A stretch of 64,000 bases of DNA from a virus (IMGVR_UViG_3300029134_000184), one strand, 5' to 3'; counted from the stretch's first letter, positions 5,448 through 62,642 are shown. Notes: generated from the letters alone by a model not told the origin. Program-made: numbers and translations.

Positions 5448-5536
5448 GTTGCCATTTTTTGTTATTACGGCTGCTCCAGCATATTAATTTATGTCAAAGA
5501 AATACTAACTATAACAACAGAAAGGAACTGGTGATA

Positions 5537-6340
5537 ATGGGAGAGAAACAACAGCCAAAATCTTGTATTTATCCAAAGCCTGAGCATTATAACGACCTGG
5601 CAGATAAGCCGATAACGAAAGATGGAATAATGGACAATGCCATTGAAATCATTTATATCTGTGCTTATAAAGCTGAAAGATTCGTCAACAAGCAATATGT
5701 GGGGGTGTCGGTTGAAAGCCGTGAAGACATCATCCAGTATGTAGCTGGCCAGATTAAGGATTTGATTGAAAACTATCTTGACAAAATTGACGAAAAAAGG
5801 GTTGATTTTTGGGCTTATATGAACAAAAGCATTCAGTATACCGCAAGCAGAGCTTATCAGACTGAAGTTAAAGATGGTGCGTCCGAATACATTCGGCACC
5901 GATACGACATGATGTCCAAATATCTCGATGAAGGGTTAACGCTGGAAGAGATTGCAGAGAAGTGTAACTGCAGGGTGTCTACGGTAAGGAAAACCCTTAG
6001 GGATGGAAAGGCAATAAATGTGAGTATCGACGCGGAGGACGATATCGGACATGCCATTCTTGATAAAGTAGGTAAAAATGATGTGTATAAGATTGAAGAA
6101 GAGGAAAAAGTATCAATCGAAGATAACATCTTAATCCGAAAGGTTCTTAAAGGTATGACAAGGGAAGAAAAGTTCATTATAGAAACTTACCTTAATATCA
6201 AAAAGGACTGTGAAAAAGAATGGAAAGACAGAACGTTTGCAGCTTGTAAGGAGTATGGCATTACTCATAAAAAAGTGAATGATGCAATCAGAAGCTTTAA
6301 AAATGAGGCCAGAAAAATGCGTAATGAGCCTTCTGGATAA
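5537..6340 (+). CDS. putative sigma-70-family (region 2/region 4) transcription factor
   Basis: C-terminal HTH LTLEEIAEKCNCRVSTVRKTL resembles sigma region 4. An upstream helical region resembles region 2. Preceded by the element-specific promoter motif at ~5476. Confidence 0.4.
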   Translation: MGEKQQPKSCIYPKPEHYNDLADKPITKDGIMDNAIEIIYICAYKAERFVNKQYVGVSVESREDIIQYVAGQIKDLIENYLDKIDEKRVDFWAYMNKSIQYTASRAYQTEVKDGASEYIRHRYDMMSKYLDEGLTLEEIAEKCNCRVSTVRKTLRDGKAINVSIDAEDDIGHAILDKVGKNDVYKIEEEEKVSIEDNILIRKVLKGMTREEKFIIETYLNIKKDCEKEWKDRTFAACKEYGITHKKVNDAIRSFKNEARKMRNEPSG

Positions 6341-6461
6341 TACAAGGTTTTGGCTTGTACAAAAACCTATAACAACACATGAGCAGCGGGGAAAACCTGC
6401 TGTTTATTTTTTGCCTGATTTTGCATATTGAAAACAAATACAAAAACAGGAGGGAAAAATA

Positions 6462-7514
6462 ATGAAAAATTTAAAAAAATCTGTTTTATGCATGCTAATG
6501 GCAGTTGTCATGGTGATGACTGTAACAGCTGCAAGCGTCATTCCGGTTCAGGATGTGTATGCGGCATCTGTGAAGCTGAATAAGACTTCACTTAACCTGT
6601 ACACGAGGACTATGATTCAGCTTACTGTATTAAATACAGGAGCAAAAGCCAAATGGTCATCAAGCAAACCGAAGGTTGCAAGCGTGACAAGTGAAGGTTA
6701 TGTCACTGCCCGCTCTGCAGGAAAAGCAAAGATTACCGCAGTTGTTGGCAAAAAAAAGCTGTACTGCAATGTCACCGTCAATGTTAAACCTGGCGAAGAA
6801 GTGAAGATGGAGTTTAAAGATTGTAAAGTTCAGGTTGGAAAAACTACACGTCTCCGCCTGATGAACATTGTCGGCCTCGCTTCATGGAAAAGTAGCAATA
6901 CAAAAATTGCTACTGTAGACGCGAATGGAGATGTAACAGGAAGAAAAACCGGTTCTGCGACAATCACTGCTACATATCACTGCAAAAGATATACTGCAAA
7001 AGTGACTGTTATATCCGGTACAACGTCTGGAACGTCAGTTATCAGAAGGAAAGCTCCTTTGGCTGACAGCGGTGTGCTGAATGCGTTTGACAAGCTTGGC
7101 TTTAAATATGCTTATGACCCGAATATTACTGGGTTCACAGGCAAATTTTCAGCAAAAGAGCATCGCATCATTGTAAGACGCGAAGAAGATGACTGTATCT
7201 ATCATGAGCTTGGTCATTTTGTAGCATGGGTAGCTGGCGATGTTGACTACAAGAAAGAATGGAAAGCGATTTATGACAAAGAGAAAAGCAAAGTTACATA
7301 TTTCAATAAAGGTTATGCAACACAAAATCCTAAGGAATATTTCGCAGATGCATATAAGGATTATATCCTGCATCGTTCTTCACTGTCTTCAACAAGACCT
7401 TTGACATACAAGTATGTTAAGGCTGCAGTCTCAAAAGTCAATGCAATGACGAGTACTAACTTTGAAAGAATGCATAAGCTGTATGACTCTATGTGGAATA
7501 AATATGGTGCTTAA
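6462..7514 (+). CDS. secreted protein: signal peptide, two Big_2 Ig-like domains, C-terminal HExxH zinc metalloprotease (anthrax lethal factor / PPEP-like)
   Basis: Signal peptide MKNLKKSVLCMLMAVVMVMTVTAASV. Two repeats of the Big_2 pattern (KPKVASVTSEGYVTARSAGKAKITA..). YHELGHFVAW plus downstream EYFADAY is typical of the ATLF-like family. Confidence 0.7.
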   Translation: MKNLKKSVLCMLMAVVMVMTVTAASVIPVQDVYAASVKLNKTSLNLYTRTMIQLTVLNTGAKAKWSSSKPKVASVTSEGYVTARSAGKAKITAVVGKKKLYCNVTVNVKPGEEVKMEFKDCKVQVGKTTRLRLMNIVGLASWKSSNTKIATVDANGDVTGRKTGSATITATYHCKRYTAKVTVISGTTSGTSVIRRKAPLADSGVLNAFDKLGFKYAYDPNITGFTGKFSAKEHRIIVRREEDDCIYHELGHFVAWVAGDVDYKKEWKAIYDKEKSKVTYFNKGYATQNPKEYFADAYKDYILHRSSLSSTRPLTYKYVKAAVSKVNAMTSTNFERMHKLYDSMWNKYGA

Positions 7515-7608
7515 ATTTCTTCAGCAGGCTTCGGCCTGCTTTTTTCGTTTTTGGAAAATTTAGCATATTAAATACGTAAATGTTAAAACCAAGAAAGGAG
7601 ATTTTCAA

Positions 7609-10930: not shown

Positions 10931-10932
10931 TT

Positions 10933-11865
10933 CTAATTCTTTAAACTATTCTGAACCCTTTTAACATAAGCAGCTATATGCGGGGCTGTCTGCTCAAGAC
11001 CGTCCGGGTCTTCCAAGCTTAACCTGAAAGCCTCTGCAAAATATTCTGCATTATTGCATATATTCTCATCTTCCAAGTCGTATTTCTGTTGTAAGGCTGT
11101 TGCCTCCGATTCGTGTGATTGGGTGACTACGTTAGAGTCAGAACGCCCGGTAGCTGATACCTGGAAATCTACCGCATGTCCGAGCTCGTGGTAGATGGTA
11201 TCTTTAAGGCTTACGGCATCACATCTGAGATACATTTTCCTTTCATCAATTCCTCCTCCAGATTGTATGTATGTCAGGCCATTGACAACCATTCCTTCAT
11301 CCATGTCAGCGGTTGACTCACCTTCCAGATAAGCGGCGGGATTGTTGCACATACAGATTTCATAACTTTGTAAAATCTGAATGTATTGGTCATCAAGCGT
11401 ATTGAAGATATCTGTGGCAAGTCCGATATACAGATTGCATGCATCGGTTTCACCAAAGATGTTGAAATTGTATTTCTGCGTTTTGCACAAATACCCATTG
11501 TATACGTATCCGAGATTCGTGTAAGACCATTCATCTCCATCATTTCCAAGTATGCTTATTGATTCGCCCTTTTTGTATGTTCCGACAATCGGGCTGTTCG
11601 CATCGGCTGACTGATGGATGTTGAGGTCAGTGACCGTGTAACAGATACCCTCCGGCGGGTCTGGCTTTGTGTTGTAAAGCGATAGGTCTTCAACCGGTGC
11701 GGGCGTTTGTTCGGTTGTCTGTTCCGGTGCTGCCGGCTGCTCCTCAACTATCTGCTGCCCGGAGTCTGAAATTCTCAGGTCTGGCAGGTCTGCCGTTGCA
11801 AATGCCGGTATATTAGTTGTTAAAATTGCTGCTGTTAAAGCAGCAAGTGTAAGTATCTTTTTCAT
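10933..11865 (-). CDS. secreted HExxH zinc metalloprotease (anthrax lethal factor / Pro-Pro endopeptidase-like)
   Basis: Signal peptide MKKILTLAALTAAILTTNIPAFA. TIYHELGHAVDF ... NAEYFAEAF. Paralogue of the C-terminal domain of 6462..7514. RBS AAAAGGAGG. Confidence 0.7.
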   Translation of the reverse strand: MKKILTLAALTAAILTTNIPAFATADLPDLRISDSGQQIVEEQPAAPEQTTEQTPAPVEDLSLYNTKPDPPEGICYTVTDLNIHQSADANSPIVGTYKKGESISILGNDGDEWSYTNLGYVYNGYLCKTQKYNFNIFGETDACNLYIGLATDIFNTLDDQYIQILQSYEICMCNNPAAYLEGESTADMDEGMVVNGLTYIQSGGGIDERKMYLRCDAVSLKDTIYHELGHAVDFQVSATGRSDSNVVTQSHESEATALQQKYDLEDENICNNAEYFAEAFRLSLEDPDGLEQTAPHIAAYVKRVQNSLKN

Positions 11866-11966
11866 TTCTTTCCTCCTTTTGCTGCATATACAATATGCAA
11901 AAAATCCGCAAAAATTTGACAATTTTAAAAACGGCTGTTAAATTAAAAGAAAAAGGAGGTAAGAAT

Positions 11967-12660: not shown

Positions 12661-12740
12661 CTCTACATTTCGGTGTAGAGAAATTTTTTATTTTCACAAA
12701 TTTTTTTTTGCAAAAAACCGTCCCATTCCTAATTTTTTCA

Positions 12741-12755
12741 GCATATTAAATATGC
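12741..12755 (+). promoter_or_regulatory. element-specific promoter motif (perfect palindrome GCATATTAAATATGC)
   Basis: One of >45 copies of GCATATTRWATRT located 25-45 nt upstream of start codons. Confidence 0.5.
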
Positions 12756-15825: not shown

Positions 15826-18800
15826 ATGGATATTAGAACAGAAGAAAGATATGAAGACGATTTTAATCAGGGCAATTTATTCATCATGAAACGTTCAGGA
15901 GAAAGAGTCCCGTTTGATGAAAGTAAAATCGTGAGGGCTATTGAAAAGGCAAATGCCGAGGTAACAATCCCTCTTGAAAAGATGAGTGAGGAAAAGATTG
16001 AAGAAATTGCAGCTCAGATTAAGCGTGATGCAGAAAATGCAGGCAGAGACCTGTCAGTGGAGGAAATCCAGGATAAAGTGGAAGACTCACTGATGATTGC
16101 CGGATACTGCACGCTGGCAAGATTATATATCACTTACAGATATAAACATAACCTTGACAGAAAGAAATCTACACTTGATAAGAAGATTGAAAGCCTTATC
16201 AATGTGAAAGTTAACAAAGACGGCAGCGTAAGCGGCAGCAATGAGGAGGTAAACCAGGAAAACAGCAATAAGGACACAAAAGTACTTTCAGTACAGCGTG
16301 ACTATATGGCTGGTGAGTGGTCAAGGGAGTATACAAGTAGAAACCTGCTTCCGGAAGATGTGGTGAATGCACACCGAAGCGGTCTGATTCATGTACATGA
16401 TACGGATTATATGGCCCAGCCGGAAGGAAACTGCTGTCTCATTAATCTTGAAGACATGCTGCAGAATGAAACCTGTATTTCTGGTACTAAGATTGAAAGG
16501 CCGAAGTCATTCATGACTGCTTCAACCGTTGCAAGCCAAATTATCGCTCAGGTTGCCAGCAGCCAGTATGGCGGTCAGACAATCAGCCTGGCACATCTCG
16601 CTCCGTTCGTTGACATATCAAGACAGAAGATTTTAAAGAGGCTGTCAAAAGAAATGTCCGATATTGGCATTGAAGTAACCGAAGAAAAATTAAAAGAACT
16701 CGCTGAAAAAGAAGTAAGAAAAGAAGTTGAGAATGGCTGTCAGACATTGCAGTATCAACTTATCACTTTACAGACAACAAATGGACAGGCTCCTTTTGTG
16801 ACTGTGTTCATGTATCTGAATGAGGCAAAAAATGAGAGGGAAAAAGAAGACCTGGCGCTTTTGATTGAAGTAATGTTTAAACAGAGAATGCTTGGCGTTA
16901 AGGATAGCAGTGGTTATTATATCACTCCGGCTTTCCCGAAACTGATTTACTGCCTGCAGGAAGATAATATCAGTGAAGATGGTAAATACTGGTATCTGAC
17001 AGAGCTTGCAGCAAAATGTACTGCCAAGAGAATGGTTCCGGATTATATTTCTGAAAAGAAGATGCTGGAGCTTAAAGGGGATGTGTACCCCAGCATGGGA
17101 TGCGTTGATGGAAAAGAAGTTGTAACATATAAATACAACGGAAAAGTCTATGTTGAAGCATTTGAAAGAATGTGGAATAGATTAGGAAAATACTTTGAAA
17201 TCAATCTGCAGGAAAATGGAAAAGACTATGTGATGAAAACCCCTGGCGTTATGATTTATGACCAGTGTAAGGGATTCGTTGATAACTACGGAATTATCAA
17301 AAACCATAATTCCGAATGGCTGCGGATAAGTTTCTCTAACGGAAGGACTATTACTTGTACTAAAGACCATCCATTTGAGACTTGTGACAATCGGGTTGTA
17401 TATGCAAAAGATTTGAAAGAATCAGATTTGATTGCAATTGATAAAACATCCGATTTTGCACCTGAATACACTTATTCCATGAAGACAAATCGTGCATGGC
17501 TTTATGGCTTTACGTTATGTGATTCTACTTATTATGACAGCATCATTGCCTCAATTGCACAGGATGGTGAACAGGAAATCAAAGATATGTTTGTCAATAC
17601 TATCAAAAGCGAATATGGACTTGATGTAACAGATACGGAGAGACACAGAGGAGTTAGAGGTAATTATATTGACTTACTTGTTAATTCTGATGGTACTAAT
17701 ACATACCGTAATCTCAGACTTGATTTGGCATGCTCTTTTGAGGGTAAAGCTAAAAACGACAGGCATATTCCAAATGAAGTTTTTTCCTGGACAAAAGAAG
17801 CAAAGCTTGCATTTTTGGCAGGAATGATTGATGCTGACGGTTATCTTAGTACACATATGAAAAAGGCAAAAATGCTAATTGGCTCAACAAACAAGGAGCT
17901 TGCCATTCAGCAGATGCTTTTAGCACAGTCTTGCGGAATGTTTGCTGTGATTTATCCGAATCGTTATAAAACAAACAGAAGGGATAAAATCAGATATCGT
18001 GTTGAATTCACACCAACTGAAGAGCTGCTGACATTTATCCAGTGTGAGAAGAAAGTAGCTCTGCATGATTCAATCCTTGGAAATACAAATGCAAGCATCG
18101 CGTCTGAGTCAACATGTCATATTACAAAAGTTGAAGAGATAAATGAAGAAGGCTTTAGTTATGATGTTACAACCGCAAGCGAACATTTTACAGTTTCAGG
18201 ACTTTATAGTCATAACTGCAGAAGTTTCCTTACTCCTGACAGATGCAGCGAGAAGGTTGGAAATATCGCTCATGCCCTTAATTATGAAGAGGGTAAGCAT
18301 AAATATTACGGCCGCTTCAATCAGGGTGTTGTAACAATCAATCTTATTGATGTTGCATGCTCATCAGAAGGCGATGAGGACAGGTTCTGGAAAATCCTTG
18401 AAGAGAGACTTAACTTATGCCATAAAGCACTTCGTGCAAAACATGAAAGGCTGCTTGGAACACCGTCAGATGTGGCACCGATTCAGTGGCAGTACGGAGC
18501 ACTTGCAAGGTTAAAACCTGGCGAAGTAATTGACCCGCTGCTGTTCAACGGATATTCAACTATTTCTCTTGGATATGCCGGTTTGGCTGAATGCGTGTAC
18601 TTCATGAAGCATGAATCTCATACTTCTGAAAACGGAAAAGAGTTTGGCTTGAAAGTTATGCAGGCGCTGAATGATGCCTGTGGTAAATGGAAAACAGAAG
18701 AAAATATTGATTATTCTGTATATGGTACCCCGTTGGAATCGACAACGTATAAATTTGCAAAATGTCTGCAGAAACGTTTTGGTAAAATCCCGGGAGTGAC

Positions 18801-19284
18801 AGACAAGAATTATATTACAAATTCCTATCATATCAGAGTAACAGAAAATATCAATGCTTTTGACAAGCTGACAAAAGAAGCAGAGTTCCAGAAACTGTCT
18901 CCTGGCGGGGCAATCTCATATGTTGAGGTGCCTAATATGCAGGGAAACATTCCGGCGGTTCTTGCAATCATCAAACATATCTACAATACAATTCTTTATG
19001 CTGAACTGAATACAAAGTCAGACCAGTGTGAGGCTTGTGGATATAATGGAGAAATCCAGATTGTGAACAAAGACGGCAAGCTGATTTGGCGCTGCCCGCA
19101 GTGCGGATGTACAGACCAGAACAAGATGCACGTTGCCAGAAGGACTTGTGGATATATCGGAACGCAGTATTGGAACCAGGGAAGGACTCAGGAAATCGCA
19201 GAACGTGTATTACACGTATCTGTTGATGAAGATGAATCTGAACAGAAACCAGTAAAAATACTGCCAAAATGTGTTGTTGCTTAA
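15826..19284 (+). CDS. nrdD: anaerobic ribonucleoside-triphosphate reductase NrdD (class III), interrupted by an intein
   Basis: ATP-cone N-terminus. C-terminal zinc ribbon CEACGY...CPQCGC and glycyl-radical motif RTCGYIG. The extein junction PSMG|C...SHN|CRSFL matches the conserved NrdD MGCRSFL block. Confidence 0.9.
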   Translation: MDIRTEERYEDDFNQGNLFIMKRSGERVPFDESKIVRAIEKANAEVTIPLEKMSEEKIEEIAAQIKRDAENAGRDLSVEEIQDKVEDSLMIAGYCTLARLYITYRYKHNLDRKKSTLDKKIESLINVKVNKDGSVSGSNEEVNQENSNKDTKVLSVQRDYMAGEWSREYTSRNLLPEDVVNAHRSGLIHVHDTDYMAQPEGNCCLINLEDMLQNETCISGTKIERPKSFMTASTVASQIIAQVASSQYGGQTISLAHLAPFVDISRQKILKRLSKEMSDIGIEVTEEKLKELAEKEVRKEVENGCQTLQYQLITLQTTNGQAPFVTVFMYLNEAKNEREKEDLALLIEVMFKQRMLGVKDSSGYYITPAFPKLIYCLQEDNISEDGKYWYLTELAAKCTAKRMVPDYISEKKMLELKGDVYPSMGCVDGKEVVTYKYNGKVYVEAFERMWNRLGKYFEINLQENGKDYVMKTPGVMIYDQCKGFVDNYGIIKNHNSEWLRISFSNGRTITCTKDHPFETCDNRVVYAKDLKESDLIAIDKTSDFAPEYTYSMKTNRAWLYGFTLCDSTYYDSIIASIAQDGEQEIKDMFVNTIKSEYGLDVTDTERHRGVRGNYIDLLVNSDGTNTYRNLRLDLACSFEGKAKNDRHIPNEVFSWTKEAKLAFLAGMIDADGYLSTHMKKAKMLIGSTNKELAIQQMLLAQSCGMFAVIYPNRYKTNRRDKIRYRVEFTPTEELLTFIQCEKKVALHDSILGNTNASIASESTCHITKVEEINEEGFSYDVTTASEHFTVSGLYSHNCRSFLTPDRCSEKVGNIAHALNYEEGKHKYYGRFNQGVVTINLIDVACSSEGDEDRFWKILEERLNLCHKALRAKHERLLGTPSDVAPIQWQYGALARLKPGEVIDPLLFNGYSTISLGYAGLAECVYFMKHESHTSENGKEFGLKVMQALNDACGKWKTEENIDYSVYGTPLESTTYKFAKCLQKRFGKIPGVTDKNYITNSYHIRVTENINAFDKLTKEAEFQKLSPGGAISYVEVPNMQGNIPAVLAIIKHIYNTILYAELNTKSDQCEACGYNGEIQIVNKDGKLIWRCPQCGCTDQNKMHVARRTCGYIGTQYWNQGRTQEIAERVLHVSVDEDESEQKPVKILPKCVVA
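17101..18216 (+). mobile_element. intein with LAGLIDADG homing-endonuclease domain inside nrdD
   Basis: Begins with Cys (CVDGKEVV) and ends SHN before extein Cys. Two LAGLIDADG blocks (LYGFTLCDSTYY, LAGMIDADGYLS). Confidence 0.8.
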
Positions 19285-19377
19285 ATCAAGTGGTGCAGGC
19301 TTACGCCTGCATCACTTTTGTATGCAGAAAAATCCTGCATATTAAAGATACAAAAAATCAAGAAAGGAAGAAAAATT

Positions 19378-19917
19378 ATGAATTACGGTAAAATTATATA
19401 TTGTGATACAGCAAACGGAATCGGCTGCAGGACTGTTCTTTTTGTTTCAGGCTGCACGCATCACTGCAAGGGGTGCTTTAATGATATGGCCTGGCCATTC
19501 GATTATGGAAAAGAATACACAAAAGAAACAGAAAACAAGATTCTTGAGTCTTTAAAACCTGATTACATAAGAGGGTTGTCTATTCTTGGCGGTGAACCGA
19601 TGGAACCAGAGAATCAGGCGGAAGTCTGGAACCTTATAAAAAGAGTCAGAAAAGAATTGCCAAAAAAAGATATCTGGGTATATTCCGGATATCTGTGGGA
19701 AGAGCTGACCGGAAAAGAAAAAGCGAGATGCAGGCAGGGAATGGCTGACAGAATCAGGCTGGATAACATCCTGCAGAATATTGATGTTCTGGTTGATGGT
19801 GAATTCCAGGAAGATAAAAAAAATATCATGCTTGAATTTCGCGGAAGCGAAAACCAGAGGGTGATTGACGTTAAGAAGACGCTGGAGACTGGTGAAGTTA
19901 TATTGCTGAAATTGTAA
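19378..19917 (+). CDS. nrdG: anaerobic RNR activating protein NrdG (radical SAM)
   Basis: CTHHCKGC radical-SAM cluster motif. N-terminal ANGIGCRTVLFVSGC. Immediately downstream of nrdD. Phage promoter motif at 19337..19350. Confidence 0.85.
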   Translation: MNYGKIIYCDTANGIGCRTVLFVSGCTHHCKGCFNDMAWPFDYGKEYTKETENKILESLKPDYIRGLSILGGEPMEPENQAEVWNLIKRVRKELPKKDIWVYSGYLWEELTGKEKARCRQGMADRIRLDNILQNIDVLVDGEFQEDKKNIMLEFRGSENQRVIDVKKTLETGEVILLKL

Positions 19918-24142: not shown

Positions 24143-24171
24143 TTGACATATTTAATCAAATCAAGTATCAT
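24143..24171 (+). promoter_or_regulatory. canonical sigma70-type promoter (TTGACA-17-TATCAT) driving the repeat array
   Basis: Perfect -35 TTGACA, 17-nt spacer, -10 TATCAT. Differs from the element-specific motif. Confidence 0.55.
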
Positions 24172-24194
24172 ATAGTAAAGAGAATTATATTTCT

Positions 24195-24372
24195 TGTATG
24201 TATAGTCTCTGGGAGTGACGGGACTTAAATTTCGAATATCGCTCAATTGTATGTATAATCTCCGGGAATGACGGGATTTAAATTTAGAATATCATTCAAT
24301 TGTATGTGCATAGTCTCCGAGAGTGACGGGACTTAAATTTAGAATATCGCTCAATTGTATGTATACTTGAAG
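24195..24372 (+). ncRNA. tandem direct repeats (3 full + 1 partial copy of a 53-55-nt unit): candidate type III antitoxin RNA (ToxI-like)
   Basis: Unit TGTATGTATAGTCTCTGGGAGTGACGGGACTTAAATTTCGAATATCGCTCAAT repeated head-to-tail at 24195, 24248, 24301 and partial 24356. No spacers. Confidence 0.6.
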
Positions 24373-24424: not shown

Positions 24425-24874
24425 ATGATAAGACTTGTTAAGGTAAAACAGGAATTTTACTCTTTGTGCCAAGAGCATAATGTTGATGAAGAACTATTAT
24501 TTAACGAAGCCGGAAGACCATGCGTTCTGTTAATACGTATGAATTATAAAAATAACGTGCATGATTTTGTAGTGCCACTAAGGTCTAACATTTCTGCCAG
24601 AACTCCGCGCAATCAATATTTTGCATTGCCGCCAAACTCATCAACAAGGCCTCAATGCAGGCATGGAATCCATTATTTCAAACTTTTTCCAATAAAGCGT
24701 GAGTATATAGACTCATACATAGTAAATGACGAATATCATACACGATTGCTTGAGATTATCAACAGAAATAAGCGGCAGATAATTGCTGCATGCCAAGATT
24801 ATTTAAAACAATGTGAATCAGGTAATAAACATTTCATCACTCCAAACATAGACGGTATTTTATCAATATTGTAA
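24425..24874 (+). CDS. ToxN/AbiQ-like type III toxin endoribonuclease (putative)
   Basis: 149 aa. The N-terminus MIRLVKVKQEFYSLCQEHN ... RPCVLLIRMNYKNNVHDFVVPLRSNI parallels ToxN/AbiQ (MKFYxIxxKYIEYLxxFD ... AFIGIVLEIQGHKYLAPLTS). Sits in the repeat-terminator-toxin context diagnostic of type III TA. Confidence 0.55.
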   Translation: MIRLVKVKQEFYSLCQEHNVDEELLFNEAGRPCVLLIRMNYKNNVHDFVVPLRSNISARTPRNQYFALPPNSSTRPQCRHGIHYFKLFPIKREYIDSYIVNDEYHTRLLEIINRNKRQIIAACQDYLKQCESGNKHFITPNIDGILSIL

Positions 24875-31665: not shown

Positions 31666-31782
31666 ACAAAAATCTACACAATACCGCCTGCTTAAATTTT
31701 GCAGGCAATTTTTTTTGCAAAAAAATAATCTGCCAGTCAAAAAATCCGGCATATTAAATATAAAGAAAAAGGAGGCAAAAAA

Positions 31783-38688: not shown

Positions 38689-38898
38689 TTTTAAAAAAAA
38701 TTCAAAAAAAGTGTTACAAAAAATTTTTTATTTTGCATATTAAATATGTAAGCAAAAATGAGATAGAAATAATTGACCTCGAGCCTTGCCGGAAAGGTAA
38801 TCCTCCTGCCGATTTTTATTTGTATTTTCATTTTGCAAAATATATATAAGCGCACAAAAGAAGCGCAAAAAAAATAAATCTAACAGGAGGAAAAACCA

Positions 38899-43720: not shown

Positions 43721-43744
43721 GACTGCACAAAATACAGCCAAAAA

Positions 43745-43870
43745 AAAGGCAATGTCATTAAGATAAGCATTCCATAGCAAAACAGACTATACATAAAAAG
43801 TGTATGGCCTGTTTTTTTTGTAACAATTCACTTCTATTAATATGAAGCGCTTATCTTAATGACATTGCTT
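43745..43870. repeat. intergenic repeat copy 1 (inverted-repeat-bounded ~110-bp element)
   Basis: GGCAATGTCATTAAGATAAGC ... GCTTATCTTAATGACATTGC termini. Near-identical copy at 45118..45355. Confidence 0.5.
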
Positions 43871-43944
43871 CCGACGGTGCTTTTTTGCATTTACAAAAAT
43901 CCAACATATTATTTACAAATTATAACGAAAGGAAGAAAAAGATT

Positions 43945-45099
43945 ATGGAATATAAAAAAGAGAATGGAACCTTAATTTTAGGAAGCGTTGAGGAAATGAG
44001 AATGTTTGCTAATGGACATATCACCATAAACCATGATAACGTTAAGCATCTCGTATATAACGGAACTCCACTTCCTCTTGGTTACAGATGTGCATTGGAG
44101 TTTATAATGCTTGATTTAAATAATCTCAAAGATATTACGATTAAAAATGACCAAAATTTTAAATCTGTTAATGGTATTATCTATTCACAAGATGGTGAAA
44201 AGCTTATATTTTGTCCAAATGGGACAACCGGAAAAATTGTAATTCCAGATGGAGTAAAAACAATTTCAAAAAATGCTTTTATGTTGTGTAAAATATCTGA
44301 AGTAGTGATTCCAAATTCTGTTGAAATAATTGGAGACTCCGCTTTTGGACAGTGCGAATACCTGAAACAAGTATTTTTTTCTCCAGACAGTAAGTTGAAA
44401 GAGATAAAATCGGACGCGTTTTTTGGATGCAAAATGTTGTCTGAAATTACTCTCCCGGATAATTTATCCACAATGCGCGATAGCGTATTCAGGGGCTCAG
44501 GACTTAAACATTTTACGTTTCCTAAATATATTGAGTATATTGGAAATAATATTTTCGAAAGTTGTGCTATAAAAAAAATAAATGCACCAAAGGAACTTTA
44601 TGTAAATCATTGTTATTTGGATATTTTAAAATCATGCTGTACGAATCAATGCGATAAAGTTGATACGACTAACGCATTTATCTTTCATATGGAAGAGGTG
44701 AAGCCAATTGTTATTCCAAAGTGCGTAGATAGTCTTAAAGCTCTTTATACAGTAAAAGAAAAGATTGATGCCTTTTTAATGCAGAAAGAGGCAAATGTAC
44801 CAGAATTGTATAAATATGGAGCAAATAATGAAAGCAGAGAAGACGCAGCAGTATTGCAATATCAAACTTACAAATCTGAGCATGCTTACCGTTCAGTTCT
44901 TGTAAAATCATCAAAAATTGCAAAAAGAAAAGCCGAAACGAGTGAATCAGAACTGATGGAATTCATAATGCTGGACATTTGGAAACCAAAAGCTTTAAAA
45001 ACTATGTTGCAAATTGCTGAAGAAAAAGAATATCCTATTGCAACGGCATATATTCTGGATAAACTACCCAAAAAGAGAGGCAACAAACTCAGCTTGTAA
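43945..45099 (+). CDS. BspA-type leucine-rich-repeat protein
   Basis: Repeated IPDGVKTISKNAFxxCKxxxEVVIPNSVEIIGDSAF pattern. Confidence 0.65.
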   Translation: MEYKKENGTLILGSVEEMRMFANGHITINHDNVKHLVYNGTPLPLGYRCALEFIMLDLNNLKDITIKNDQNFKSVNGIIYSQDGEKLIFCPNGTTGKIVIPDGVKTISKNAFMLCKISEVVIPNSVEIIGDSAFGQCEYLKQVFFSPDSKLKEIKSDAFFGCKMLSEITLPDNLSTMRDSVFRGSGLKHFTFPKYIEYIGNNIFESCAIKKINAPKELYVNHCYLDILKSCCTNQCDKVDTTNAFIFHMEEVKPIVIPKCVDSLKALYTVKEKIDAFLMQKEANVPELYKYGANNESREDAAVLQYQTYKSEHAYRSVLVKSSKIAKRKAETSESELMEFIMLDIWKPKALKTMLQIAEEKEYPIATAYILDKLPKKRGNKLSL

Positions 45100-45117
45100 C
45101 ATCAGAGCACCGCCGGA

Positions 45118-45355
45118 GGCGGCAATGTCATTAAGATAAGCATTCCATAACAAAACAGACTATACATGAAAAGTGTATGGCCTGTTTTTTTGTAACAATT
45201 CACTCGGTGAGCTTATGCTCACCTTCACCAGACTTCGAACGTAGTTCTTCGTTGGCAGAAAAAAAAGATGGTCTTTGACCAGAAGCCCCACTTCGGCGCG
45301 AGCAAGTGGCGGGTAGTTCAGTGGCGTAAAACACTTATCTTAATGACATTGCCAA
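45118..45355. repeat. intergenic repeat copy 2 with ~130-bp internal insertion
   Basis: Same termini as 43745..43870. Extra segment 45216..45345 containing hairpin GGTGAGCTTATGCTCACC. Confidence 0.5.
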
Positions 45356-45554
45356 AAAAGGCTGTATTTTTTTTGCAAAAAAATTTGCAAAAACCGAACC
45401 AAAAAGTTTTTTTTCTGCATATTGTAATTGCGAATATTTTGATAGAAAAGGAGGTTGTTTACAATAGGCGGGAACGCGCTTGCCCGTCAGGTAAAAGTAA
45501 GACAGCGCCCGCCTGGTACACGCGAGATAATCGCGGTATCGCAAAAAGAAAAAA

Positions 45555-46409
45555 ATGAAAAAGAACCAAAAAATAGGAGCAAAAGAAAGTAAGCGTAAAA
45601 AGAAAAAGAAAAAAGGAATATCAGCCAGCGATATAGTGCTGATGCTGATATTTATAGTAGCGCTTACAGTAGCTGCTTTTGCCGGATACAGACTGTATTC
45701 TATCATGATGGAGTACAAAGCCGGCGTTGATGAGTATTCCCAGATTGCCGACACGGTAGTCAAGGAAAGGGATGCTGACAAAGAAAAAATCAAGAAACTG
45801 AAAGATGCAGAAACAGGCGAAGAAGTCAAGCACTGGGAATCACCGCTTGATATCGACTTTAAGGAACTTAAATCTATCAACCCGGATGTAGCCGGATGGA
45901 TATATATGGAAGCTCTTCCTGATATCAGTTACCCGATTGTTCAGGGTGATGACAATGAATTTTATTTACACCATACTTATAAGAAGGAATCCATTTTTGC
46001 AGGCTCGATTTTTGTTGACTGTAAGAATTCAAAAGATTTCTCTGACCAGAACACAATTGTGTATGGTCATAACATGAAAAACGGCTCTATGTTTGGAACC
46101 CTTAAAAACTACAAGCTGCAGGAGACAGTAGATAAGAGCCCTTATTTCTGGATTATCACGAAAAAGGATGCATATAAGTACAAAATCTTTTCAATATATA
46201 CCGCCAATGTTGACGGCGATACATATACCTTAATAAAAGGCCCTGGAAAGGAGACCGTTGAGTATGCAAATAATATGAAAGCAAAATCCAATATTGATAT
46301 GGGTGAGTTTGACTTTAAGGAAACTGACAAAATCGTCACGCTGTCAACCTGCACCGGAGACACAGCGACAAGATTTGTTGTCCAGGGAGTGAGAGTTGAA
46401 CCGGAGTAA
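45555..46409 (+). CDS. srtB: class B sortase
   Basis: N-terminal TM. Catalytic His in YGHNM and Cys in LSTCTGD (TLxTC motif). RBS-poor but preceded by phage promoter at ~45417. Confidence 0.75.
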   Translation: MKKNQKIGAKESKRKKKKKKGISASDIVLMLIFIVALTVAAFAGYRLYSIMMEYKAGVDEYSQIADTVVKERDADKEKIKKLKDAETGEEVKHWESPLDIDFKELKSINPDVAGWIYMEALPDISYPIVQGDDNEFYLHHTYKKESIFAGSIFVDCKNSKDFSDQNTIVYGHNMKNGSMFGTLKNYKLQETVDKSPYFWIITKKDAYKYKIFSIYTANVDGDTYTLIKGPGKETVEYANNMKAKSNIDMGEFDFKETDKIVTLSTCTGDTATRFVVQGVRVEPE

Positions 46410-55933: not shown

Positions 55934-56086
55934 ATATATTGACAGCAGGCAAAAAAAATGCCTGCTGTTTTTTTTGTAAAAAAAATAAAAAAAACGTTCA
56001 AAAAAAATATTATTTTGCATATTAATTCCGGCATATTGTATTGGAACACAAATATTGTCTTCGGCTAAAAAAAGGAGGTAAAAAAA

Positions 56087-56395
56087 ATGAAAAAGACAAT
56101 GTATTCTGCAATGAAAAACCTAGCGGAATATATTGCTGCAAGCCAGTCGTCTGACTTTGATGGAATATGGGATGAATGGAGCAGCAAATATAAACCGGAA
56201 GATTATATGGAATTACCGCTTAGGAAAATGGGAATGCAGTTATGTCAAATAGACAAAGCTGAGATAAAGAGTGTGCCAGAAAGAAGCTATAGAGACACAA
56301 TTAAAAAGACGTTAAAACCTGGAATTAATAAGGAGGAGTTCGAAAATGAGCGAGAAGAATACTTCAAATCAGCAAGATACGACGAAGCAGAATGA
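56087..56395 (+). CDS. hypothetical protein
   Basis: Two promoter motifs upstream (56020, 56032). RBS AAGGAGG. Confidence 0.45.
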   Translation: MKKTMYSAMKNLAEYIAASQSSDFDGIWDEWSSKYKPEDYMELPLRKMGMQLCQIDKAEIKSVPERSYRDTIKKTLKPGINKEEFENEREEYFKSARYDEAE

Positions 56396-57359
56396 AAAAT
56401 ATGATGTTGTATATAATAAAAATTCAGGATACAGCCAGAGCGAAGTTACGAAACTGATAAAAATATATCATATGGCGATGGCAGCCGGAGATAATGTAAC
56501 CGTGCAGGATGCTTATACAAAAATATACTTTTTTATTGCAAAGTATGTATATAAAACACTGTGGGGCAATTACCATACATTAATGCAGAACAAGTACCAC
56601 CGTGAAGATATAGTCCAGGACGTGTGGGTAAAAATTTTTAATGAGCTGAAAAACTTTGACCCGGACAAGGGTGCCCTCACTACTTTTATTACTCCGTGGA
56701 TAAAGCACGTTGTGTCAGATTATGCAAGCAAAAACTTCAGAAAGACTTCAGTTTATTATGCGAATGCTATGACGAAGATAAATGGAGCCCAGAACTATTG
56801 CAAACAGTATGGTTTAAATTCAGATGATATTGAGACAATCATGAGTCTGACAGGATTGTCAGAAGCGACAGTAAAAAATACTCTTGATATTATGTCTAAA
56901 AAAGACAGCGTCTCATATGAAGCCTTAATTGATGCCGGTGCTGATTATGTTACACAGATTAAAGGGCCTGAGGAGTCAGTAATTGAAGCAGAATCAGAAC
57001 GTAACCTTGGGGAGCTTCTCAGGGATGTGTTAACTGATGAAGAACTGCAATTGTTATCACTACTGCTTAATCCGGAAAACGCAAACAAAAAGCATTCAAG
57101 CTACCGTGAAATCGCTGAACAGATTCCGGGAAGTAATATTCCTAAAATCAAGAGAAAGATTTCAAGGATAACTACAAAACTTAAAAACAATGAAAGATTT
57201 GCCCAGATGTATCCATACATTATCGCGCAGGAAAAAGCGCTTGAGGATAATTATATTCCAGTGCTGGATGATACAGATGAGGTTGATGAAATGTATGAAA
57301 ATTTTGACGATATTGATGTAAATGATGGCTGGAGCAAGGCAAAAAAGAAAAAGAAATAA
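56346..57359 (+). CDS. sigma-70-family factor (region 2 and region 4)
   Basis: DIVQDVWVKIFNELKNFDPDKGALTTFITPWIKHVVSDYASKNFRK (region 2-like). Region-4-like HTH SYREIAEQIPGSNIPKIKRKISRITTKLK. Confidence 0.55.
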   Translation: MSEKNTSNQQDTTKQNEKYDVVYNKNSGYSQSEVTKLIKIYHMAMAAGDNVTVQDAYTKIYFFIAKYVYKTLWGNYHTLMQNKYHREDIVQDVWVKIFNELKNFDPDKGALTTFITPWIKHVVSDYASKNFRKTSVYYANAMTKINGAQNYCKQYGLNSDDIETIMSLTGLSEATVKNTLDIMSKKDSVSYEALIDAGADYVTQIKGPEESVIEAESERNLGELLRDVLTDEELQLLSLLLNPENANKKHSSYREIAEQIPGSNIPKIKRKISRITTKLKNNERFAQMYPYIIAQEKALEDNYIPVLDDTDEVDEMYENFDDIDVNDGWSKAKKKKK

Positions 57360-58636: not shown

Positions 58637-58840
58637 CAACAGAAAGAAGCAGTGACAGTTTTCGCGGTCACTGCTTCTTTCTGTTGTTATATTTCTTTTT
58701 CTTAAAAATGTTATTTTTTAAAAATTATTTTGCATATTAGATATGTAACAAAACTGAAGAAATTACATTTTGCCTGTATTTTGAGCCTGTCATTGCTGCT
58801 GCGGCAAGAATCTCACAAAATGATAACAGGAGGAATTTAT

Positions 58841-59763: not shown

Positions 59764-59779
59764 GAAAGGAGCTTTTTAT

Positions 59780-60936: not shown

Positions 60937-61767
60937 ATGGCAAACGAATATTCGAAAGAAAACGTATGGAAGATAATGGAAGACTCAAGAACTGTTAATT
61001 TTATCAGAGCAATCGGACTGCCTGACAGAAAAAATATCCGGATTGATATTGAAACATATACGGCGATTGACGGAGAAGCGAGCCAGGAGCTCGTTGATGA
61101 ACTGCATATCCTGAGACAGGATATGACAAGAAGAACTGCGAAGACCTTAAAGAAGCTTGACGTGACTGCAGAAGAGCTGAAATGCGGGCTTTCTGACGAA
61201 GCGGCAGTAAGACAGGTATCTGAATACCTTCATAAGCATGACGGCGTTGTTGTATCATATGGAACCTGTGCGGTGATATCAGATATTAATAAGATTGCCC
61301 TGGAATTTCAGATTCCGCTTGTAGAAAATAACCAGTTTGATATGAAAAAGATGACAAAGAAATGTGATGAAGACTACCCTGACAAGTCTACGATAGAAAA
61401 CACCAGGGAAGCATTAAAATACTGCTTAAAAAAATACAAAAAGATATACGCAGCAGAGAATAACAAAAAAGCCTGCACGCTGAATTATGCATATTATACT
61501 GAATTTGACACTGTGCGTATGTACAACGAATGGATTTGCTGCAATACATCAATCGGAAATATTTATTACGATACACTTTCGGAGGAATGGGGAATGACCA
61601 AAAAAGAAAGTAAAAAAGTCGGATTCTCTATTGAAAGTGTAGATACTGAGGATGTGAAGAACCAGCTGCTGAAAAAATATTATGTGAAAGACATGGAAGA
61701 ATTAAAAGAAAAGCTGAAAATCAGGTTCGAACTGAAAGAACAGCAAAAATCCGGAATCTCGGCGTAA
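60937..61767 (+). CDS. hypothetical protein
   Basis: Phage promoter at ~60897. RBS AGGAGG. Confidence 0.45.
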   Translation: MANEYSKENVWKIMEDSRTVNFIRAIGLPDRKNIRIDIETYTAIDGEASQELVDELHILRQDMTRRTAKTLKKLDVTAEELKCGLSDEAAVRQVSEYLHKHDGVVVSYGTCAVISDINKIALEFQIPLVENNQFDMKKMTKKCDEDYPDKSTIENTREALKYCLKKYKKIYAAENNKKACTLNYAYYTEFDTVRMYNEWICCNTSIGNIYYDTLSEEWGMTKKESKKVGFSIESVDTEDVKNQLLKKYYVKDMEELKEKLKIRFELKEQQKSGISA

Positions 61768-61861
61768 GTCAACAATAAAATCCTGCGAAAAAATCCGCAG
61801 GATTTTATTTTTTCTGGAAAATTTCAGCATATTGTATGTATCAAACAAAAGGAGAAAAAAT

Positions 61862-62584
61862 ATGGCTAAAAATAATACTTTATATATCGTAATGCCGGCA
61901 TACAACGAAGAAGAAAATATCAGGGATGTTGTGGCGTCATGGTATCCAAAATTAGAGCTTGCTGGAGCAAATTCCAGGCTCGTCGTAGCTGATAGCGGCA
62001 GCAGTGATAAGACACACGAGATTCTTGTTGAGATGAAAAACGAATACCCGCAGCTGGAAATCCTTGAAGAAACAGACAGACAGCATGGGCCAAAAGTTAT
62101 TGCCCTGTATGATTACGCTATCAAAAACGGTGCTGGCTATATCTTCCAGACTGATTCTGATGGACAGACAAAGCCTGAACAGTTTGACCGGTTCTGGGAT
62201 ATCCGTGAGCAATACGATGCCGTGATTGGGCACAGAACAAGAAGAGAGGATGGAAGAAGCCGTGCTTTCGTAGAGAAGGTGGTATGCATGATGCTTAAAA
62301 TGTATTTCGGTGTTAAGGTGCCGGATGCAAATGCACCGTTCAGACTGATGAAAGCCGATGTTGTAAAAAAATATCTTTACAATATGGAGCCGGATTTCAA
62401 TCTGCCTAACATTATGATGACAACATTTTTCGTATATTACGGCGAAAATGTTAAATTTAAGCCAATCGCGTTCAAACCGAGGGAAAAAGGTACTAATTCA
62501 ATAAACATCAAAAAAATTATCAAAATTGGATGGAAAGCACAAAAAGATTTCAGAAAATTTAAGAAAAAAATGGCTGAAGAATAA
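61862..62584 (+). CDS. family-2 glycosyltransferase (DPM1-like)
   Basis: LYIVMPAYNEEENI N-terminal GT2 motif and DSDGQ (DxD-like). Confidence 0.7.
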   Translation: MAKNNTLYIVMPAYNEEENIRDVVASWYPKLELAGANSRLVVADSGSSDKTHEILVEMKNEYPQLEILEETDRQHGPKVIALYDYAIKNGAGYIFQTDSDGQTKPEQFDRFWDIREQYDAVIGHRTRREDGRSRAFVEKVVCMMLKMYFGVKVPDANAPFRLMKADVVKKYLYNMEPDFNLPNIMMTTFFVYYGENVKFKPIAFKPREKGTNSINIKKIIKIGWKAQKDFRKFKKKMAEE

Positions 62585-62627
62585 TTTAAAAAAACGTTAC
62601 ACTTTTTAAATTATTTTGCATATTGAA

Positions 62628-62642
62628 TGCGTAACAAAAAAT
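62628..62642 (+). promoter_or_regulatory. element-specific promoter motif GCATATTGAATGCGT driving the ORF-free 3' region
   Basis: Preceded by the TTTTTAAATTATTTT upstream element, like other copies. Confidence 0.45.

Follow-up and report, generated by a model that had tools for sequence, protein, structure and literature searches.

The stretch of DNA analysed here (the window, 64,000 nt) raises the question of what the short motif that recurs in front of its genes does, and which protein reads it. An unseeded de novo k-mer scan returned GCATATT as the top 7-mer, homopolymers aside, and this core was found 70 times on the two strands of the 64-kb window against 16.5 ± 4.2 in shuffled sequences, 48 of the copies being on the + strand. 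Within the ~10 kb of intergenic sequence, 36-37 copies lay on the + strand, where 0.9 were expected, and 2 on the − strand. The original prediction of a strand-specific motif, enriched over shuffled sequence, upstream of the + strand genes between 5479 and 62624 was thus borne out. Its details had to be narrowed: the 13-nt pattern as written (GCATATTRWATRT), said to occur more than 45 times, has 9 matches, and such a copy number holds for the GCATATT part, the downstream RWATRT part being a mere tendency. GCATATT is absent from region 1-5400. The sites are listed below, single positions being those of the first base of the core:

5479..62630, + strand: span of the promoter core, 37 intergenic GCATATT matches
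5479, 6423, 7563, 9748, 9797, 10241, 12741, 15632, 15755, 19337, + strand: core G, part 1
19972, 20400, 21691, 22539, 23605, 24964, 27573, 28410, 28466, 31016, + strand: core G, part 2
31749, 32933, 33252, 34071, 34942, 37922, 38735, 40397, 45417, + strand: core G, part 3
50888, 56017, 56031, 58732, 59739, 60898, 61827, 62618, + strand: core G, part 4
22277 and 26954 (GCATACT), 43904 (ACATATT), 46489 (TCATATT), 49889 (GCATATA), + strand: likely one-mismatch variants
11892..11898, − strand: the only correctly oriented − strand copy, 33 nt upstream of gene 10933-11865 (−)

We found that 33 of the 37 intergenic sites lie 25-130 nt upstream of a start on the same strand, and that the orientation of the motif tracks that of the gene rather than the DNA strand. 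When transcription units were defined by an upstream gap of at least 50 nt (n = 48), 32 had an exact GCATATT upstream and 37 had either this or a one-mismatch variant, the other 11 carrying neither, which reduces the claim that nearly every + strand gene is preceded by the motif. The distance from the G of the core to the ATG, put at 25-45 nt in the original prediction, was 33-71 nt, with a median of ~44.

With the G of GCATATT set to -13 and a putative +1 numbered from it, the position matrices of the window (n = 37) and of its relatives (n = 26) were concordant and gave the full form T(-17)Y Y n G(-13)CATATT(-7)R(-6)..A(-4)..Y(-1)R(+1). T-17 occurs at 35/37 sites in the window and 24/26 in relatives, with Y at -15 in both matrices, R-6 at 36/37 and 26/26, and a purine at the putative +1 preceded by T/Y at 35/37 and 25/26. 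The motif shows the co-orientation with genes, the fixed short distance to the RBS, the -11A, the -7T and the purine 6-8 nt downstream that mark a promoter -10, and this geometry would fit an extended -10 element lacking a conserved -35. At the -35 of motif sites, neither TTGACA nor the SPO1-type CGTTAGA matched better than at control offsets (for CGTTAGA, the mean mismatch was 4.05 in the window, 4.37 in relatives and 4.4-4.5 at the control offsets), and the shortest G-to-ATG gaps (33-35 nt) leave space for a -10 element alone and none for a -35. Canonical TTGACA-N16-18-TATAAT promoters occur in the whole window at chance level (28 vs 27.4 in shuffles), which does not support the proposal that they mark toxin-antitoxin (TA) or defence cassettes; as to the supposed TA-like modules themselves, the small genes scanned yielded no toxin-antitoxin domain.

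The sequences upstream of the core were also informative. A terminator-like hairpin lies no more than 90 nt upstream of 26 of 38 motif sites, and 12 of the hairpins end 10-27 nt before the motif G, forming compact cassettes in which there is no room for another promoter between terminator and gene. The optional upstream TTTTGCAAAAA-like tracts of the original prediction turned out to be real, with 35 matches against 10 expected, and are present at about one third of the sites. Examples of both arrangements are:

19296..19336, + strand: compact terminator-promoter cassette, hairpin GTGGTGCAG...CTGCATCAC plus T tract, ending 21 nt before G 19337
12696..12716, no strand assigned: optional T-tract/GC/A-tract element (TTTTTTTTTGCAAAAAA)
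near 31713, 34908, 45371/45383, 50851, 55972, 27519 and 37863: further T-tract/GC/A-tract elements

T-to-A junctions cluster at indices -30, -41 and -54, that is, at about -43, -54 and -67 from the putative start. At about one third of the sites the T/A tracts are helically phased and stand where UP elements do, a position that suggests an UP-element-like role. Some promoters also carry an unexplained GC-containing block at -36 to -27.

The sampled relatives of the window are Hodor-like megaplasmids of ~380-430 kb. Their contigs (380-428 kb) come from human-gut assemblies, and several features of Hodor, namely human gut origin, size >300 kb, a sec module (SecY/G/E), sortases and a T4SS, were found: SecY (3836-5152), SecE (5165-5401) and a sortase (45555-46409) are encoded in the window and VirD4/TraG in relatives. 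The window, 64 kb of a ~380 kb element, contains neither the Rep_3/ParA/ParB markers nor the Hodor surface proteins of >7300 aa and ~2600 aa, and the likeness rests on the sec, sortase and T4SS features. The core has been retained upstream of genes in all relatives sampled, whose GC is 31-47%. Intergenic + strand copies numbered 7 against 0.36 expected in L004 (GC 31%), 6 against 0.18 in L005 (GC 44%), 6 against 0.25 in L014 and 7 against 0.33 in L016; L075 (GC 47%, with a sigma 47% identical) has 4 well-placed copies, and in L072, found through the motif alone, 7 of 8 copies are canonical. At orthologous promoters the flanks diverge and the core is retained. Two unrelated control loci, L007 and L020, contained zero copies. 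Most copies in the L077/L078 lineage have T at -13, and no corresponding change was evident in their sigma.

Which protein could read such a promoter? Two sigma-70-family genes had been proposed in the window, and the corresponding features are:

56346..57359, + strand: three-domain (sigma2, sigma3, sigma4) member of the sigma-70 family, 337 aa, proposed reader of the motif
56017..56044, + strand: tandem motif pair (G at 56017 and 56031) before the small-ORF/sigma operon
56087..56395, + strand: ORF of 102 aa, overlapping the sigma start by 50 nt
5537..6340, + strand: second sigma-like protein, 267 aa, with a motif copy upstream at 5479

The 337-aa protein, for which the assignment held, scored above the family cut-offs (Pfam Sigma70_r2, E 2.9e-11, 43.4 bits, cut-off 24; TIGR02937, 48.8 bits, cut-off 42.9, residues 64-281), and its sole sigma match in a PDB sequence search was RpoH, with an alignment running through region 3.0. 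Foldseek with its AF2 model (pLDDT 66) gave 47 matches at E<=1e-3, and all of the best 50 were sigma factors, among them SigB, SigD, SigA, sigma32 and sigmaS, with 265-305 columns aligned; TM-scores were low (0.2-0.3) because the inter-domain arrangement differs. By its domain order it is a genuine sigma with three domains that resembles group 3, not the two-domain ECF type. Its gene is syntenic in all relatives, and searches of PLSDB (tblastn), INPHARED and 185,579 species genomes yielded no homologue; it is a new sigma family, conserved together with the motif. Since motif and sigma co-occur only in one vertically related element family, however, this co-occurrence is not independent evidence. 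An invariant histidine, His121, aligns with Q437 in region 2.4 of sigma70, where the change Q437H suppresses a T-to-C substitution at -12 (PMC2613000); the residue would thus fit the invariant C at -12 of the motif. The -35-reading residues R584/E585 of sigma70 align with I/P, which would likewise fit the absence of a TTGACA -35. That no -35 element was detected sits uneasily, on the other hand, with the good conservation of the sigma4 domain.

The tandem pair in front of the sigma operon recurs in L014 (9684/9698) and L015 (5344/5358), again at the orthologous position, and suggests positive autoregulation; the region before the sigma gene showed no promoter of the sigmaA type. The 102-aa ORF, which had no match in Pfam or NCBIfam, may encode a partner or regulator of the sigma: an ORF of 81-107 aa occupies the same position in most relatives, with no counterpart in L077/L078.

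Taken together, we consider it probable that GCATATT is the extended -10 core of the principal promoter used across this megaplasmid family, and that host core RNA polymerase bound to the 337-aa sigma reads it. CATATT would occupy -12 to -7, preceded by G at -13 and by T-Y-Y at -17 to -15 and followed by a purine at -6, and transcription would start at a purine 6-7 nt downstream. Like other sigma70-family members, sigma2 would flip -11A and -7T, the invariant His at the Q437 position would read the C:G pair at -12, and sigma3 would read the -17 to -13 segment. No specific -35 hexamer would be used. In compact cassettes the T tract of the preceding terminator occupies -34 to -31, and in other promoters the phased tracts of T and A near -43, -54 and -67 would offer the alpha C-terminal domains UP-like sites. 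Almost all genes or short operons would form terminator-promoter-gene cassettes, so that the level of sigma would set the expression of most of the element, and the two tandem promoters before the sigma operon would provide positive feedback. On this reading the plasmid appears to impose a transcription programme of its own on the RNA polymerase of its host. The dedicated programme of the original prediction, with an element-specific promoter and a sigma of its own, finds support in the position, orientation and spacing of the motif, in its placement directly after terminators, in its conservation in all sampled relatives carrying the sigma, and in a region-2.4 His that appears to suit the invariant C at -12.

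It could be argued that the motif is read by a host sigma, either the housekeeping factor of an unusual lineage or a sporulation-type one, and that the plasmid sigmas control something else. The core keeps the -11A and -7T needed by any sigma70-family member, CATA-type -10 elements occur in Bacillota (those of the Bacillus sigmaE/sigmaK consensus begin with CATA), and a host reader would remove the bootstrapping problem, that is, how sigma expression starts after transfer into a new cell. We nevertheless regard this as unlikely. Plasmid genes for replication and secretion, along with housekeeping-like ones, would all have to rely on a sporulation sigma, which would be surprising, and for a sigmaA-type region 2.4 the invariant C at -12 is unfavourable (PMC2613000). 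TG is absent at -15/-14, as is TTGACA at -35. Moreover, a conserved plasmid sigma with a matching His lies behind a tandem pair of these very promoters, and L081, a similar Bacillota-type element with a distant sigma relative, lacks the motif and has TATAAT-like -10s instead.

The 267-aa protein might read the motif, alone or with the 337-aa sigma as an early/late pair, but this we find improbable. By sequence it has a 27-residue region-4 HTH match alone, below the cut-offs (Pfam 23.2 vs 25.7; TIGR02937 28.8 vs 42.9 bits), and a PDB profile search returned no sigma match; its assignment to the sigma-70 family was therefore not upheld at this level. It is divergent, being without equivalents of W433/W434 and with Tyr, not His, at the Q437 position, and its homologues number 15, nearly all >90% identical and one at 39%, in a word-seeded search that may miss distant copies, while the motif is kept in far more distant elements. 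In its favour, a motif copy lies 58 nt upstream of its gene, hhalign gave a collinear alignment with the 337-aa family (E 0.004, 8.7% probability), and the best 50 Foldseek PDB matches of its AF2 model (pLDDT 71) were all sigma factors (best E 1.6e-3, TM ~0.26). The 267-aa protein thus looks sigma-like by predicted fold, and is apparently confined to close relatives. The two candidates are not equivalent, family-wide conservation being seen for the 337-aa sigma only.

We also give little credence to the motif being mainly the operator of a plasmid DNA-binding regulator, dimeric or iteron-type, that overlaps promoters of another type. The right half (AATATG) does match the reverse complement of the core best at the palindromic offset (mean 3.8/7, against 1.6-2.8 at others), and an unrelated IMG/VR contig carries a near-identical TTTTGCATATTAA in ~40 tandem 19-20-bp units resembling protein-binding iterons. 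The several perfect palindromes that had been reported, however, came down to one of 37 sites (15 bp, at 12741), with 3 more matching 6/7. Conservation is strongly asymmetric, the left arm having seven invariant bases and the right arm a weak preference for A and T that L005 has lost. A promoter element would account for the strict co-orientation with genes and the fixed RBS distance, and no other conserved promoter element lies between terminator and gene. A dimeric activator on the palindrome, also considered, is disfavoured by the same conservation of the left half alone.

Conservation over ~17 nt at the start site, as seen here, is also typical of single-subunit polymerase promoters, and the window covers 64 kb of ~380 kb, but an RNA-level signal (5' leader, processing or stability) or a promoter for a separate plasmid RNA polymerase encoded outside the window is very improbable indeed, given that the motif stands 10-27 nt after terminators, where it would rarely be transcribed from upstream, and that the -11A/-7T pattern and a matching sigma are present. 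The term RNA polymerase has 0 occurrences in the Hodor description (PMC12934698).

Among known elements, the conjugative Hodor megaplasmids of the human gut (PMC12934698) and Inocle (PMC12340149, oral streptococci) resemble this one in being human-associated, >300 kb and probably hosted by Bacillota, although the window, at 39% GC, falls outside both Hodor G1 and G2 (47.1% and 44.6%; PMC12934698). Neither paper mentions a promoter, nor does the Hodor paper mention a sigma; an 'RpoS'-annotated sigma is reported for Inocles (PMC12340149), and the Hodor paper cites the paired metatranscriptomes PRJNA492158, PRJNA354235 and PRJNA818303 (PMC12934698). All share a SecY/SecE module, sortases, a signal peptidase, a T4SS coupling protein and TnpB, and pieces of all have been filed as viral contigs.

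The late promoters read by T4 gp55 (TATAAATA) consist of a -10 only and, like those described here, are without a -35. Late promoters of SPO1, read by gp34/gp33, have the form CGTTAGA-N17-19-GATATT (PMC3601020), and their -10 is one base from CATATT. In both phages a mobile element uses a sigma of its own to redirect host core RNA polymerase to an element-wide consensus, as proposed here. The 337-aa sigma differs in having three domains, against the minimal T4 gp55, and in showing no detectable similarity to any INPHARED phage, and it is encoded by a conjugative plasmid, for which no temporal lytic programme is known. In sigma70 itself, with its extended -10/UP architecture, residue 437 of region 2.4 reads -12 (PMC2613000). 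There, as proposed here, a lengthened -10 is read by sigma2/sigma3 and A/T tracts at -40 to -60 replace a good -35; the extension is TYYnG(-13) here and T(-15)G(-14)n in sigma70, and -12 is C here and T in sigma70.

A close parallel in kind is SigN (ZpdN), encoded by pBS32 of Bacillus subtilis, which directs host core RNA polymerase to a consensus confined essentially to the plasmid, has a regulon restricted to it and activates its own promoter (PMC6751061). Both are large Bacillota plasmids with their own sigma70-family factor, a plasmid-restricted regulon and autoactivation being proposed from sequence in the present case. In SigN promoters, however, a clear -35 (TTTACGT) is combined with a -10 of the AGATAWAA type, whereas the present promoters lack a -35 and have GCATATT as their -10; SigN is induced via a LexA-repressed sigmaA promoter, of which none was seen before the sigma gene here; and no sequence similarity between the two sigmas was detected (tblastn, PLSDB). 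SigN serves a subset of genes, while about three quarters of the transcription units carry the motif in the present element. The kind of system is thus already known from pBS32 SigN and phage sigmas; what is new is the family to which the sigma belongs, the motif itself and a scale that spans the element.

The heptamer GCATATT is a genuine promoter signal, far from random in its occurrence and conserved in evolution. It occurred 70 times on the two strands of the window, against 16.5 in shuffled sequences, in keeping with the predicted enrichment. The + strand carried 48 copies, and the original prediction of more than 45 copies thus holds for this core, not for the degenerate pattern GCATATTRWATRT as it had been written, which gave 9 matches where 0.03 were expected. 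Within about 10 kb of intergenic DNA there were 36-37 + strand copies, where chance would give 0.9, and 2 copies on the - strand. Motif discovery by an unseeded k-mer scan of this intergenic DNA likewise ranked GCATATT first among the non-homopolymer 7-mers, with GCATATTA and GCATATTG heading the non-homopolymer 8-mers.

Thirty-three of the sites sit 25-130 nt 5' of a co-oriented start codon. The distance from the G of the motif to the ATG was 33-71 nt at most sites (median about 44), a range that overlaps the 25-45 nt first proposed and extends beyond it. Among transcription units with a gap of 50 nt or longer before them (n = 48), the exact core preceded 32 of them and a correctly placed one-base variant another 5 (GCATACT twice, ACATATT, TCATATT and GCATATA); the remaining 11 had no motif, which narrows the claim that nearly every + strand gene carries it. 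No copy was found in the first 5.4 kb (TnpB, two unassigned genes and SecY-SecE), and this block, up to 5401, is the only long motif-free stretch in the window. The features of the window discussed here, where the GC content is 39% and 62 of the 65 called genes lie on the + strand, are:

16-1860: TnpB (IS605 OrfB/Cas12f-like), without tnpA, and the non-coding DNA after it
3836-5152: SecY
5165-5401: SecE, following SecY
5537-6340: 267-aa protein, second sigma candidate
10933-11865, - strand: gene with the motif in its own orientation
15826-19284: NrdD, anaerobic ribonucleotide reductase, 1152 aa, intein-bearing
19378-19917: NrdG, after NrdD
56346-57359: 337-aa protein, first sigma candidate

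At some motif copies the leader before the next gene is long, 164 nt at 38735-38898 and 109 nt at 58732-58840. The arrangement of motif and long leader ahead of the SSB-like gene is kept in relatives (L014 11111, L016 11148, L004 11214), and an opposite-strand canonical-like promoter, with its -10 ending at 58820, is directed into the 58732-58840 leader region. Antisense or leader-based control may operate there.

Position matrices for the window (37 sites) and for five relatives (26 sites) were concordant. Numbering the G of the motif as -13, GCATATT is invariant from -13 to -7, preceded by a T at -17 (35/37 in the window, 24/26 in the relatives), pyrimidines at -16 and -15 and any base at -14. 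It is followed by a purine at -6 (36/37 and 26/26), an A at -4, a T or other pyrimidine at -1 and a purine at the predicted +1 (35/37 and 25/26), which gives the full form TYYnGCATATTR. Sigma70-family factors flip out the -11 A and the -7 T; the chosen register places an A and a T at these two positions and a pyrimidine-purine step at the predicted start. No other register fits the shortest cases: at site 31749 the 13-nt motif ends just 8 nt before the Shine-Dalgarno sequence. On these sequence features, GCATATT is very probably a -10 element.

A dimeric operator was disfavoured as the main explanation by the asymmetry of this conservation. The several perfect palindromes that had been reported shrank to one 15-bp case, at 12741, with 6/7 matches at three further sites. 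The right half (index 8-14) did match the reverse complement of the core better at the palindromic offset (mean 3.8/7) than at other offsets, but the right arm is weak and is lost in the relative L005 (44% GC), where the score is about 1/7. What is conserved is thus a single asymmetric half, the pattern expected of a -10 element whose discriminator is AT-rich and whose start is Y-R. Canonical sigmaA-type promoters were present at chance level in the whole window (28 vs 27.4), and the idea that they mark toxin-antitoxin-like modules was not supported, as no toxin-antitoxin Pfam domain was found among the small genes scanned. The best canonical site, TTGACA-N17-TATCAT at 24144-24171, lies before a 53-bp tandem repeat and not before any recognisable toxin-antitoxin pair. 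This repeat (24194-24365; 3.2 copies, 85% matches), ahead of a 149-aa gene at 24425, could be a small-RNA or regulatory array outside the GCATATT system. A literature search with the motif string returned nothing informative.

Candidate -35 elements of the sigmaA type (TTGACA) or the SPO1 late type (CGTTAGA) were also rejected, their mismatch counts at the proper spacing being no better than at control offsets. The T-T-Y-Y preference seen at -34 to -31 is modest and largely mirrors terminators. Intrinsic-terminator-like hairpins lie within 90 nt upstream of 26 of 38 motif sites, and 12 of them end 10-27 nt ahead of the G, so that the terminator T tract falls on the -35 position and another promoter cannot fit between terminator and gene. 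Promoters other than these compact terminator cassettes tend to show T-tract/GC/A-tract blocks. The T/A-tract element announced upstream of the motif was recovered, TTTTGCAAAAA having 35 matches with at most one mismatch where 10 were expected. Their junctions from T to A concentrate near -43, -54 and -67, spaced by one helical turn, and fall in the zone of A/T-rich UP elements, which at -40 to -60 contact the alpha C-terminal domains (PMC2613000). A three-part layout, consisting of a T/A tract, a GC-containing block of about 10 bp at -36 to -27 and a T-rich spacer, was seen in terminator-less promoters (window 12741-12755, 34942, 45417 and 50888; L014 11111, L016 11148 and L017 915). The GC block, exemplified by CCGTCCCATT, GCGTACCGTT and TGTACTCGTT, is statistically not established and might be bound weakly by sigma4 or an activator.

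The core was kept ahead of genes in every sampled sigma-carrying lineage, despite large compositional drift, and at orthologous promoters the flanks diverge and the core stays.

Intergenic + strand copies of GCATATT in four relatives of the window
L004: GC 31%; 7 copies; 0.36 expected
L005: GC 44%; 6 copies; 0.18 expected
L014: GC 39%; 6 copies; 0.25 expected
L016: GC 36%; 7 copies; 0.33 expected

A further relative, L075 (47% GC; sigma identity only 47%), has four copies at proper positions, and unrelated control loci (L007 and L020) have none. The tandem motif pair before the sigma operon is also orthologous (window 56017/56031, L014 9684/9698, and L015). Scanning IMG/VR with a 17-mer returned mostly single chance matches, one unrelated iteron-like array (L052/L033) and one real relative, L072, part of a 137.7-kb contig, which was thus recovered through the motif alone; of the 8 copies in L072, 7 sit in a canonical terminator-motif-RBS cassette. 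In L077/L078 (sigma 61% identical), most promoters read TCATATTAA or TCATATTGT, with T for G at -13, indicating that this position can shift while CATATT stays; no specific, lineage-linked residue matching the change was seen in region 2.4/3.0 of the sigma. The motif is absent from L081, whose sigma is only distantly related and which has TATAAT-like -10s, and the loci of three other distant sigma relatives (L079, L080 and L082) were set aside as too short.

The iteron-like array (L052 9024-9915, L033 6800-7135; IMG/VR 3300030231_001001, GVMAG-S-ERX555975-30) consists of about 40 tandem 19-20-bp units containing TTTTGCATATTAA, nearly identical to the promoter consensus. Protein similarity between its contig and the window was not detectable, and the motif is missing upstream of the contig's genes. 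The array looks like iterons or a centromere and its likeness to the promoter may be coincidence, although such a sequence is able to serve as a repeated protein-binding site.

Of the two proteins predicted to be sigma-70 factors, the one of 337 aa was recognised by sequence models (Pfam Sigma70_r2, E 2.9e-11; TIGR02937 above cut-off, residues 64-281). The sole sigma among its PDB sequence relatives was RpoH, aligned across regions 2 and 3.0, and its AF2 model (pLDDT 66) aligns with the three-domain sigmas SigB, SigD, SigA, sigma32 and sigmaS. No relative was detected in PLSDB, INPHARED or 185,579 species genomes. In an exhaustive HMM search, cluster representatives numbered 19 at E<=1e-30 and 331 when the limit was relaxed to E<=1e-10, revealing a sizeable yet unannotated family. 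In alignments to RpoH and E. coli sigma70, TTFITPWIKHVVSDY of the 337-aa protein matches FSTYATWWIRQAITR; Y430 of sigma70 is replaced by F, W434 is retained, and the Q437 position is occupied by a His that is invariant in 15/15 members of the family. In sigma70, Q437 contacts the -12 base pair, and Q437H is one of two known suppressors of a T:A-to-C:G change at -12 (PMC2613000), which is precisely how CATATT departs from TATAAT. The -35-reading positions R584/E585 are Ile/Pro, in line with the missing TTGACA. The conserved plasmid 337-aa sigma is the probable, if far from certain, reader of the motif. Just 5' of the sigma gene, and often overlapping it, most relatives have a small ORF of 81-107 aa with no known domain (window 56087-56395; L004 9733-9999; L005 9736-10035; L075 8435-8758; L082 1133-1378), which was not found in L077/L078. 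It may encode a sigma partner or anti-sigma.

The 267-aa protein fell under every sequence-model cut-off. It is collinear with the 337-aa family (hhalign E 0.004), and the best 50 PDB matches of its AF2 model (pLDDT 71) were all sigma factors. It is a plausible second sigma. It has no equivalents of W433/W434 and belongs to a narrow family of 15 proteins, nearly all >90% identical; since the motif is kept far outside this distribution, the 267-aa protein is not the best candidate reader.

Homologues of the 337-aa sigma, the nearest 99% identical, came from human-gut metagenomes, on contigs as long as 379,969, 382,248 and 427,652 bp, where genes for a VirD4/TraG coupling protein and for topoisomerase III come next; one copy is filed in IMG/VR as a viral contig. 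About 320 kb of the element falls outside the window, whose other products include RtcB, FtsH, Sir2, signal peptidase, sortase, an SPFH protein, an SSB-like protein and surface proteins with BspA-type LRR and DUF285. Phage and plasmid collections gave no near match to 20 kb of the window. TnpB gave a single partial Chloroflexia match, judged irrelevant, and at best about 40% identity, to Clostridia, in PLSDB. The roughly 370 nt of GC-rich non-coding DNA after its gene could be its guide (omega) RNA, and the NrdD intein has a LAGLIDADG homing-endonuclease domain (residues ~494-797). At 62618, a GCATATT promoter is followed by more than 1.1 kb of raised GC without a convincing ORF (62618-63750), and at least six related short-read contigs (L006, L008, L009, L011, L013 and L019) stop at equivalents of 62,620-63,210, which suggests a repeated element or large non-coding RNA. 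Rfam searches gave nothing meaningful, either over the whole window at the gathering threshold or over 62550-64000 at an E-value threshold. The intergenic segments 45100-45400 and 43721-43900 share a repeat (…aatgtcattaagataagcattccata(g/a)caaaacagactatacat(a/g)aaaagtgtatggcctgttttttt…), with a partial inverted copy, cttatcttaatgacattgc, which suggests that the LRR gene 43945-45099 is flanked by a small non-coding element, duplicated or mobile. The window and its relatives are candidate Hodors by their profile, which matches that of these human-gut conjugative megaplasmids of >300 kb with SecY/G/E, sortases, a T4SS and Bacillota hosts, initially taken for huge phages (PMC12934698), and resemble the oral Inocles (PMC12340149). 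Both were first described in 2025-2026, and the expression of their hundreds of genes was not addressed; promoters are mentioned in neither description, and a sigma factor nowhere in the Hodor one (PMC12934698, PMC12340149).

In the mechanism we propose, host core RNAP carrying the 337-aa sigma would recognise the extended -10 TYYnGCATATTR, with non-specific or UP-like upstream contacts, and would begin transcription at the conserved purine. Genes would be laid out as terminator-promoter-gene cassettes, and the sigma operon, with its tandem pair of own-type promoters, would be subject to feedback. If the pairing holds, the element would have one conserved promoter and the matching sigma as its master switch, sigma level jointly setting the expression of secretion, surface, nucleotide-metabolism and transfer genes; start sites could be checked in existing metatranscriptomes, and a compact -35-less orthogonal pair would be available for Bacillota engineering. 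Co-oriented intergenic TYYnGCATATTR would then offer a simple signature by which pieces of these elements could be recognised and binned. Host range would be touched as well, since a promoter code of the plasmid's own would lessen reliance on host sigma specificity. More tentatively, and with the balance somewhat against it, a whole family of gut conjugative megaplasmids (Hodor-like, possibly Inocle-like) might be autonomous in transcription, with almost every gene an insulated terminator-promoter cassette that only the plasmid sigma, of a new family, reads through a -35-independent GCATATT. Such a naturally orthogonal sigma/promoter pair would make plasmid expression independent of the host promoter code, and could account for plasmids and carried prophages working across distant Bacillota.

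Plasmid or phage sigmas with their own promoters are already known. The phage sigmas T4 gp55, whose late promoter is a -10 only, and SPO1 gp34 are functional analogues of the 337-aa sigma. The SPO1 gp34 promoter is CGTTAGA-N17-19-GATATT (PMC3601020), but its -35 is absent from the window promoters and the sigmas have no sequence similarity. By analogy, the nearest precedent in kind is SigN of the B. subtilis plasmid pBS32, which likewise is plasmid-encoded and has an autoactivated regulon confined to the plasmid; SigN promoters, however, have a clear -35/-10 consensus where no -35 is seen here, and SigN has an entry promoter under sigmaA/LexA control and governs a partial regulon, whereas use of the present motif is near-global (PMC6751061). 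What is new is the sigma family, the promoter sequence, the -35-less architecture and the near-global use on a conjugative megaplasmid.
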